DNA of 62,373 nucleotides from an uncultured Candidatus Saccharibacteria bacterium (GCA_964621595.1 CAZUPO010000003.1:7150-69522); one strand, 5' to 3'; positions 17,925 to 18,108 are shown, counted from the stretch's first letter. Numbers and translations are program-made. Notes: generated by a model not told the origin, from the letters alone.

Positions 17925-18108
17925 TGTGCCCTCGGCGGGAAGTTCGGTCACAAATCTGCCTCGTCGCTTTGCTCCTCGAAGCAGATTCGCGACCCCTATT
18001 CGCTTCCCGACGTACGACACTCAAGTGTCGTACTCCTAATACCGCAGAGTATAAAATACCCATCACTCCGTTGGATGGGTATTTTATACTCTGTGCCCTC
18101 GGCGGGAA
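17925..18108. repeat. tRNA-linked noncoding element L1 bracketed by a 17-nt direct repeat of the tRNA-Arg 3' end
   Basis: TGTGCCCTCGGCGGGAA occurs at 17925-17941 and 18092-18108. The interior holds the 21-mer GTTCGGTCACAAATCTGCCTC (17942-17962) and three strong hairpins (17933-18012, 18012-18033, 18046-18092). Confidence 0.7.

Follow-up and report, generated by a model that had tools for sequence, protein, structure and literature searches.

The tRNA-Arg(CCT) gene of an uncultured Candidatus Saccharibacteria bacterium is followed by an insertion that is bracketed by a duplicated segment of the tRNA 3' end. This insertion, L1, occupies positions 17925-18108 (both repeat copies included) of the window, that is, of the whole stretch of 62,373 nucleotides that was analysed (GCA_964621595.1, CAZUPO010000003.1:7150-69522), and it belongs to a family of units found behind many different tRNA genes. 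The account favoured here, with about as much confidence as reserve, is that L1 is a cargo-less, non-autonomous mobile element resident at the tRNA 3' end, whose hairpin module serves as a cis-acting site recombined in trans at the T-loop boundary.

Transfer RNA genes are classic landing pads for mobile DNA; to my knowledge, the occupants described so far each bring an integrase of their own and retain a single, fixed attachment site. Gene-less and only 130-170 nt long, the L1 family has spread to at least 25 different tRNA genes within one clade of ultra-small, genome-reduced bacteria (CPR/Patescibacteria). The main point of interest is that the target-matching arms change while the scaffold stays constant: were the arms re-templated from the target, or acting as guides, the family would represent a compact and naturally reprogrammable system of site-specific insertion. 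On a conservative reading, it explains recurrent assembly breaks at tRNA genes in these metagenome-assembled genomes (MAGs), provides tRNA genes with terminators, and is a marker of recent gene flow among Patescibacteria.

The duplicated tRNA end and its empty sites

The host gene, a tRNA-Arg(CCT) without encoded CCA, lies on the minus strand at 18093..18165, where it is recognised by ARAGORN and by the Rfam model RF00005 (51.5 bits); the element and all its parts are read on the same strand. The direct repeat of the tRNA 3' end, pointed out in the preliminary description, is real and far above chance. It comprises the last 15 nt of the tRNA and two trailer nt, and TGTGCCCTCGGCGGGAA occurs exactly twice in the window (17925-17941 and 18092-18108), the chance expectation with up to three mismatches being 0.06 matches and two matches being reached in none of 100 shuffles. 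The proximal copy found by the repeat search (UUCCCGCCGAGGGCACA, 18092..18108) spans T-loop positions 59-60, the 3' strand of the T-stem, the 3' strand of the acceptor stem, the discriminator and two trailer nt; the distal copy (17925..17941), as repeat search and flank comparison indicate, continues into the original chromosomal flank.

Relatives provide the empty sites. In L017, L021 and L043, GTGAGAYAGACYG stands 6 nt after tRNA-Arg(CCT), whereas in the window it stands 6 nt after the distal copy and 173 nt from the tRNA (190 nt in L024); the insert in the window is therefore 167 bp long, namely 150 bp plus one 17-bp repeat copy, the repeat beginning in the T-loop. The suggestion of a tRNA-targeting insertion is thereby borne out as far as repeat and empty sites are concerned, the classic attL/attR picture that accompanied it being incomplete.

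Contigs of the same strain were found by look-up of the exact glutaredoxin protein. Two of them (L180 and L187) carry L1 unchanged, and a third (L181) matches the window at 99.86% identity for 2,888 bp, as far as position 18092, beyond which the tRNA is joined directly to ACTCATGTGAGACAGACCG, without L1. Since L181 differs further downstream too, the comparison shows a breakpoint at the tRNA 3' end and no clean excision. Seven of the ten contigs with an identical glutaredoxin stop inside tRNA-Arg, before it, or at most 3 nt after it (L181-L189); such ends fit a branch point at which the assembly broke, either from the repeat or from strain polymorphism. The tRNA itself also varies, the gene of the window having an A.C mismatch in the T-stem (GUAGG/CCCGC) and that of the near-identical strain L181 a C.A mismatch in the acceptor stem instead.

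The 150-bp insert is without an ORF, and the genes around it are of the housekeeping kind: they encode LepA, an RNase_T exonuclease, a glutaredoxin and a Vut_1 transporter. Inspection of the 58 ORFs of the 62-kb window, 10 of which were checked with Pfam, brought to light no recognisable integrase, transposase or reverse transcriptase, and no IS110-like, TnpB or IscB gene adjoins the element. A 101-aa ORF on the plus strand (17924-18229), antisense to both element and tRNA, is almost certainly spurious. Outside the insert, a conserved flank motif (GUGAGAUAGACCG, minus strand, 17885..17918), delimited by locus comparison and promoter scan, overlaps the promoter-like site (17913-17885, minus strand) of the Vut_1/yhhQ-type gene. 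The motif CATGTGAGAYAGACCG always stands 6 nt past the 3' end of tRNA-Arg(CCT) or past the distal copy (window, L015, L017, L021, L024, L043, L111 and L181), the genes beyond it varying from genome to genome; it includes GACCGA, which resembles the 3' end of the element core. As to the tRNA genes in general, taking those of the window (15407, 18093, 33495 and 49266) together with those of related loci, most do not encode CCA, and many trailers start with CA right after the discriminator. A further tRNA at 61990-62065 (minus strand), between the 23S end (62201-62373) and the 5S (61836-61944), scores 56 bits with Rfam and is given no anticodon by ARAGORN ('tRNA-???', 'ac').

Anatomy and fold of the module

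On the tRNA strand the order of parts is tRNA, terminator-like hairpin, linker, H1, t', bulge, P2-P3, GAAC and the distal copy UUCCCGCCGAGGGCACA. The terminator-like hairpin (18046..18092), evident in the sequence as an A-tract, a GC stem and a T-tract forming 19 bp, lies directly 3' of the tRNA. It is part of the inserted unit, for it is missing at empty sites; its counterpart behind tRNA-Arg(GCG) in L170 shares about 90% identity with it, and a simple terminator scan did not call it in L1. L1 is more than a terminator, a further 120 nt being conserved and covarying beyond 18046-18092. Unit comparison places next a linker (GCGGUAUUAGGA, 18034..18045), which stands where a', complementary to the 3' strand of the tRNA acceptor, is found in other family members; L1 is without a'. 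The idea that its linker, GCGGUAUUAGG, is a leftover a' of a former host tRNA was dropped, no matching tRNA end being present among the sequences collected.

Hairpin H1 (18012..18033) consists of 9 bp and a tetraloop, UUGA in L1 and CUGC in most members. It is followed by t' (GUCGGGAAG, 18003..18011), the complement of the T-loop and T-stem part of the distal copy, with the start of which (t) it pairs in the fold, t'/t pairs following the local tRNA. A one-sided bulge, CGAAUAGG (17995..18002; family consensus from the alignment UCGAAUAGG), leads to the long 18-bp hairpin P2-P3 (GGUCGCGAAUCUGCUUCG...CGAGGCAGAUUUGUGACC, 17946..17994), identified by fold and alignment, whose base is conserved (GGUCGCG/UGUGACC, with G.U pairs) and whose variable top comes in discrete alleles. 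The junction GAAC (17942..17945) then separates hairpin and repeat; according to the alignment, other members have none.

The stems listed in the preliminary description are thus to be found, both the one pairing 17933-42 with 18003-12, which contains one mismatch, and the hairpins of 9 bp (18012-18033) and 19 bp (18046-18092); the largest and best-conserved helix, that of 17946-17994, had been overlooked. The 21-mer singled out there, GTTCGGTCACAAATCTGCCTC, is the 3' half of this 18-bp P2-P3 hairpin, and it does have two exact copies in the window (17942 and 33324), none being expected by chance. As for the inverted imitation of the tRNA end, it is present as described, but it is systematic across units and goes beyond ordinary att-site logic. 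The candidate explanation that a' and t' form an RNA-level chimera copied from the tRNA's own 5' strands was rejected: in the window, t' (GUCGGGAAG) is complementary to the 3' strand plus two bases of the T-loop, the tRNA itself having GUAGG as the 5' strand of its T-stem, and a' also pairs with trailer bases, which counts against an origin from the tRNA 5' strand.

Folding is strand-specific. The minus strand of 17925-18037 reaches -57 kcal/mol (z = -7.0) and the plus strand -45 kcal/mol (z = -4.8); across the family, 83 of 84 elements fold more stably in sense than in antisense, the mean advantage being 8.8 kcal/mol. With 81 aligned sequences, RNAalifold predicted 28 pairs, 19 of them with compensatory changes; all nine pairs of H1, the base of P3 and t'/t covary. 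At alignment columns 67/104, unconstrained by the search pattern, 64 sequences have a G.U pair, 13 have A-U and 4 have G-C: the G.U form would be C.A on the other strand, so that the tRNA-sense strand alone can adopt the full fold. Since the search pattern that yielded L085-L179 prescribed the blocks GAATAGGGGTCGC and GTGACCGA, their invariance there, together with that of one G.U pair, is a matter of ascertainment, the same caveat applying to the bulge CGAAUAGG. At the t'/t junction, offsets of 0-3 nt or variation of about 10 nt break a compensation test in fixed register.

The second copy of the 21-mer marks a divergent family member (33303..33492) behind tRNA-Ser(GGA), itself at 33495-33583 on the minus strand, the 21-mer lying 171 nt downstream of the tRNA. 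All parts of this element are likewise on the minus strand: terminator (33459-33491), a' (GGCGGAGAGAAG, 33446-33457), H1 (33422-33445), t' (33414-33421) and an enlarged core of about 90 nt that ends in the shared 21-mer (33324-33344). The distal copy has decayed here, and an 11-bp a' helix (two G.U pairs) forms with the real tRNA 3' end across the terminator. Besides being apparent from the sequence, the relationship is recovered by R1, a covariance model built from 81 members; the Ser element, which was outside the training set, scores 33.5 bits (E = 3.7e-8).

A family behind many tRNA genes

About 110 homologous modules were found in about 42 Patescibacteria MAGs, variously labelled Saccharibacteria, Nomurabacteria or Paceibacterota. 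Three further exact copies of the 21-mer lie behind tRNA-Arg(GCG), tRNA-Pro and tRNA-Lys in two MAGs, and each of these units terminates in a copy of the 3' end of its own tRNA. A gapped pattern of the core matched 98 stretches, six of which are chance matches outside the clade; R1 finds only L1 (87 bits) and the Ser element in the window, and 25 matches in the LepA loci, some of them from more distant Paceibacteria. Of the conjecture of a tRNA-targeting element family, this much has held: the family is large, strictly associated with tRNA genes and devoid of an integrase of its own.

The linkage has a fixed polarity. Ninety of the 110 cores lie 47-318 nt (mode 85-90 nt) downstream of a tRNA on the same strand, 25 isoacceptors being represented. 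For 71 of 304 tRNAs the last 15 nt recur downstream as a direct copy, 64 of these copies at a distance of 100-250 nt, and upstream direct copies number three, all beside Gly-GCC/Gly-TCC genes, which have a common 3' end. A first survey, of 80 loci collected via LepA relatives plus the first loci and the window (139 tRNAs, 720 kb), had given a downstream copy of the last 14 nt (at most one mismatch) for 25 tRNAs, all but one at 120-310 nt and three doubled in tandem; upstream copies were found for none of the 139 tRNAs in the 720 kb searched. The copy begins at T-loop position 58/59 in 69 of 90 members, measures 4-27 nt and keeps the acceptor part in about half of them.

Catalogues do not hold the element. 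Rfam 15 has no family for it (window at gathering thresholds, both loci at permissive E-values, and 11 related loci), these scans returning tRNA, rRNA and RNase P only, and neither ARAGORN nor RF00005 recognises it as tRNA or tRNA-like. Viral contigs gave no match to the exact 19-mers or to the gapped core pattern, and a metagenome collection gave a single match to the exact 19-mers (L004), a high-GC chance match without a tRNA. No earlier description was found in full texts by a limited search, which leaves absence unproven; the family is apparently uncatalogued so far.

The arms of each unit are tailored to the local tRNA. In many units, a' follows directly after the terminator and is the complement of the acceptor 3' strand and trailer. 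Of 73 units, 25 have a' only, 20 (including L1) the distal acceptor copy only, 10 both and 18 neither; a' and the distal acceptor copy are thus seldom together, which means that an acceptor-like closing stem is found in some units only. Unrelated tRNAs can be followed by units whose terminator, H1 and core are homologous and whose differences are confined to a', t', t and a, each set of these four fitting the local tRNA. Cases in point are L008 Arg-CCT versus L149 Val-TAC, L008 Phe versus L158 and L087 Lys-TTT, and L146 Glu versus L172 Ser. Template switching within quasi-palindromes and conversion from the adjacent tRNA are known processes that might retailor such arms.

Whole units have moved between tRNA genes. 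The entire L1 unit, counting its terminator, shares about 90% identity with those behind tRNA-Arg(CCT) in L023 and tRNA-Arg(GCG) in L170, and relative to L1 the unit of L023 has only the top of P3 exchanged for another allele. Mosaicism of this kind is widespread: in 66 of 84 elements the nearest relative of the P3 top is found in another genome behind a different tRNA, one 32-nt allele being 100% identical behind Val-GAC, Arg-TCG, Lys-CTT and Lys-TTT in five MAGs, and H1 alleles combine freely with P3 alleles. Units also accrete in tandem, arrays of non-identical ones being present in L167, L014, L043 and L081. At orthologous elements (L007, L012 and L027) the core is kept while terminators and H1 have diverged; this resembles purifying selection in place, and a host function could be involved.

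Islands intervene between tRNA and module at some loci. In L121 (399-3545), a 3-kb island comes after tRNA-Leu(CAA), and beyond it stand a decayed tRNA fragment and a type-A element whose arms are those of Leu-CAA. The island holds a fragmentary filamentous-phage-type (G2P-type) Rep protein (Pfam Phage_CRI, E = 1.5e-7) and an S51 peptidase. Upstream of type-A elements there are also, in L178 (oriented 1155-3460), a putative restriction enzyme and a C5 methyltransferase behind tRNA-Ser(ACT); in L176 (5561-7147), a large serine recombinase abutting another tRNA-Ser; and in L092 (1692-6190), prophage genes (terminase, N6/N4 methylases). That the module might be the distal end of such cargo islands (L121, L178 and L092) was considered and rejected: between island and module there is in each case, as in L176, a decayed tRNA fragment with the module's own terminator, which marks the islands as separate insertions of later date. 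The module is not borne as its own end by any island or viral contig.

Several other observations were made on these loci. According to ARAGORN, tRNA-Ser with the unusual anticodon ACT is present in several MAGs (L147, L172, L176 and L178), and L176 and L178 contain truncated tRNA-like fragments in which an anticodon-arm-like hairpin is fused directly to the acceptor 3' end. In L133 (2300-2700), two type-A elements stand head to head around one terminator, without a tRNA, inside a perfect palindrome of more than 700 bp, be it an artefact of assembly or a genuine inverted duplication. The place of the module is taken by other types behind tRNA-Arg-CCT in L025, L030, L031, L037, L075 and L083, and are found too in L013, L039, L070, L074 and L084 and in L005 and L043. 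Type B has an uninterrupted reverse complement of the last 23 nt of the tRNA (GTGCCCTCGGCGGGAATCGAACC), another core and a short direct copy; longer, multi-hairpin types end in ...TTAGTAACTCGTGACCGA or ...CAAATACTTGTCGGAGA.

Competing readings and known systems

As a mobile element, L1 would have as its target the 3' segment of the tRNA, from T-loop position 58/59 to just past the 3' end. The incoming unit would bring a replacement tRNA 3' end together with the terminator-like hairpin; the tRNA would remain intact by virtue of the 3' end supplied, the original one being shifted by about 150 bp downstream. H1, the t'/t stem, the bulge and the P2-P3 hairpin would constitute the cis-acting site, presumably folded in one strand (the tRNA-sense strand), with a stem base that imitates the T-stem of the target. 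The recombining enzyme would act in trans from a gene located elsewhere, with the crossover at the T-loop boundary (CGA|UU), and the predicted circle junction is ...GUGACCGAAC-UUCCCGCCGAGGGCACA-GAGUAUAAAAUACCC. On this scheme, the fold would act as a recombination site in single-stranded DNA, as do integron attC and CTX-phage attP, and not as RNA; the work would fall to a trans-acting recombinase, and once a unit has moved its arms would be templated anew, possibly by quasipalindrome template switching.

Several points weigh against this account. No recombinase could be linked to the family, and an excised form was not seen. A single attP is what a classical site-specific element retains; in this family the arms vary with the tRNA, and an extra, hypothetical re-templating step is thus required. 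The identity block of 17-21 bp could serve plain homologous (Campbell-type) integration, the strand-specific fold and conserved loops would suit an RNA equally well, with terminator read-through as a possible source, and the core is conserved in the orthologous elements of L007, L012 and L027 while terminators and H1 diverge.

The foremost alternative, to be taken seriously although the smaller share of probability falls to it, is one that the preliminary description had raised in the form of a structured trailer or small RNA: the module would function as a structured RNA produced from the tRNA strand, whether through read-through of the terminator or as a processing product of the tRNA precursor. 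It would mimic the acceptor/T-arm helix of the neighbouring tRNA, for instance as a decoy, a processing signal or a regulator, the repeat being a by-product of the spread of the gene. A fold specific to the sense strand is what such an RNA would have, as are the covariation of H1, t'/t and P3, the conserved bulge and CUGC loop, and the retention of the core where the distal copy has decayed; moreover, in 10 of 73 units a'/a and t'/t make a continuous tRNA-like helix with H1 as a side arm. Yet the acceptor-like closing stem is confined to these 10 of 73 units, and neither ARAGORN nor Rfam sees a tRNA or a known RNA family. A terminator-like hairpin always lies between tRNA and module, and no promoter-like site was called between that hairpin and H1, the nearest minus-strand call being downstream (17913-17885); taken together, these argue against routine transcription of the module. 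Interchangeable discrete alleles and presence/absence polymorphism are, in addition, typical of mobile DNA.

Within the mobile-element account, a bolder version can be framed, which I consider rather doubtful but worth stating: the module would be a new kind of folded single-strand recombination site, whose imitation of the T-stem (and acceptor) would be copied afresh from the target each time the element moves, template switching being one possible means, so that one gene-less element of 150 nt could colonise any tRNA gene. A programmable RNA guiding a trans-acting recombinase would fit the same data equally.

The remaining readings are less likely than either a mobile element or a sense-strand RNA. 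That L1 is a passive scar, the att arms left after a larger prophage or island lost its interior, with no activity of its own, is improbable. Transfer RNA genes in these MAGs do gather islands (L121, L178, L176 and L092), and partial tRNA copies are well known as integration footprints, having been described for tycheposons (bioRxiv 10.1101/2020.12.28.424599). The islands, however, are separate and later, the module keeping its own decayed tRNA fragment and terminator in front; none of them, nor any viral contig, ends in a module; and a random scar is at variance with constant size and architecture in more than 100 copies, with the lack of residual coding fragments, and with helices that covary through compensatory changes.

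More improbable still is movement by an RNA-guided recombinase or transposase, with the module as a bridge-RNA-like guide whose a', t', t and a specify the tRNA target. A constant scaffold interleaved with short segments that fit the local target on both strands, and a strand-specific fold, are what this would predict. Against it, there is no adjacent IS110-like, TnpB or IscB gene and no Rfam match, the variable segments pair with one another within the fold and hence are not displayed in loops, and scaffolds 100% identical but with different arms imply that arms are replaced faster than mutation allows.

Finally, an ordinary, vertically inherited spacer with a repeat from local duplication, as the presence of the element at orthologous tRNA-Arg(CCT) genes in several species might suggest, has next to nothing in its favour given that close relatives have empty sites, that the L1 unit recurs behind different tRNA genes, and that the family has more than 100 members; many homologues and covariation were found where the preliminary description had allowed for a conserved spacer with neither.

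Among known systems, retron ncRNAs have an adjacent reverse-transcriptase gene, and L1 has none. MITEs and REP/BIME sequences are likewise short, gene-less, hairpin-forming, multi-copy and intergenic; the L1 family differs in having no terminal inverted repeats (the start of the terminator and ...GUGACCGAAC are not inverted copies of each other), in a duplication of 17-21 nt instead of a short one, and in its strict linkage to tRNA 3' ends in a fixed orientation. Bridge RNAs of the IS110 family carry segments matching the insertion target within a conserved scaffold. The interleaving of conserved scaffold and short target-matching segments is shared by the L1 family, whereas there is no adjoining recombinase gene, the matching segments are mutually paired, and the whole measures about 150 bp. 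Mimics of tRNA, such as plant mitochondrial t-elements and the tRNA-like domain of tmRNA, resemble the complete units in the helix of acceptor-like and T-stem-like stems, which are identical to those of the real tRNA; here a long hairpin takes the place of the T-loop, the acceptor-like stem is usually incomplete, and tRNA models do not see it.

Closer are the tRNA-targeting integrative elements, tycheposons and CIMEs, a group in which a direct repeat of a tRNA 3' segment brackets the insert and an element-borne copy restores the tRNA. With this group, the L1 family also shares an identity block that begins in the T-loop (a T-loop sublocation class of integrase sites was reportedly defined by Williams in 2002) and the displacement of older insertions from the tRNA by newer ones; with CIMEs, which are integrase-less cis-mobilizable elements, it shares the absence of an integrase. 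It departs from them in being about 150 bp long, without genes, and constant in architecture with covarying hairpins, in that one lineage sits behind many unrelated tRNAs with its arms re-tailored each time, and in that the direct copy of the target is paired, as a stem, with an inverted one.

Integron attC sites and the attP(+) of CTX phage are recombination sites folded in single-stranded DNA, each a strand-specific hairpin served by a recombinase encoded elsewhere. The likeness to the L1 module is one of architecture only, and comprises a crossover-adjacent stem that leads by way of an unpaired bulge to a further conserved stem, with a terminal hairpin that varies. The target, however, is the T-loop of a tRNA instead of attI or dif, the crossover-adjacent stem is target specific, the RYYYAAC/GTTRRRY consensus of attC is absent from the alignment, and neither an IntI in the window nor any tie of the family to IntI or Xer was found. 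To sum up, L1 lacks the defining sequence and enzyme features of att footprints, CIMEs, attC and CTX attP, and yet these are the closest known systems; with attC it shares gene-less units and tandem arrays, the observed layout being the one that the logic of attI x attC recombination predicts.
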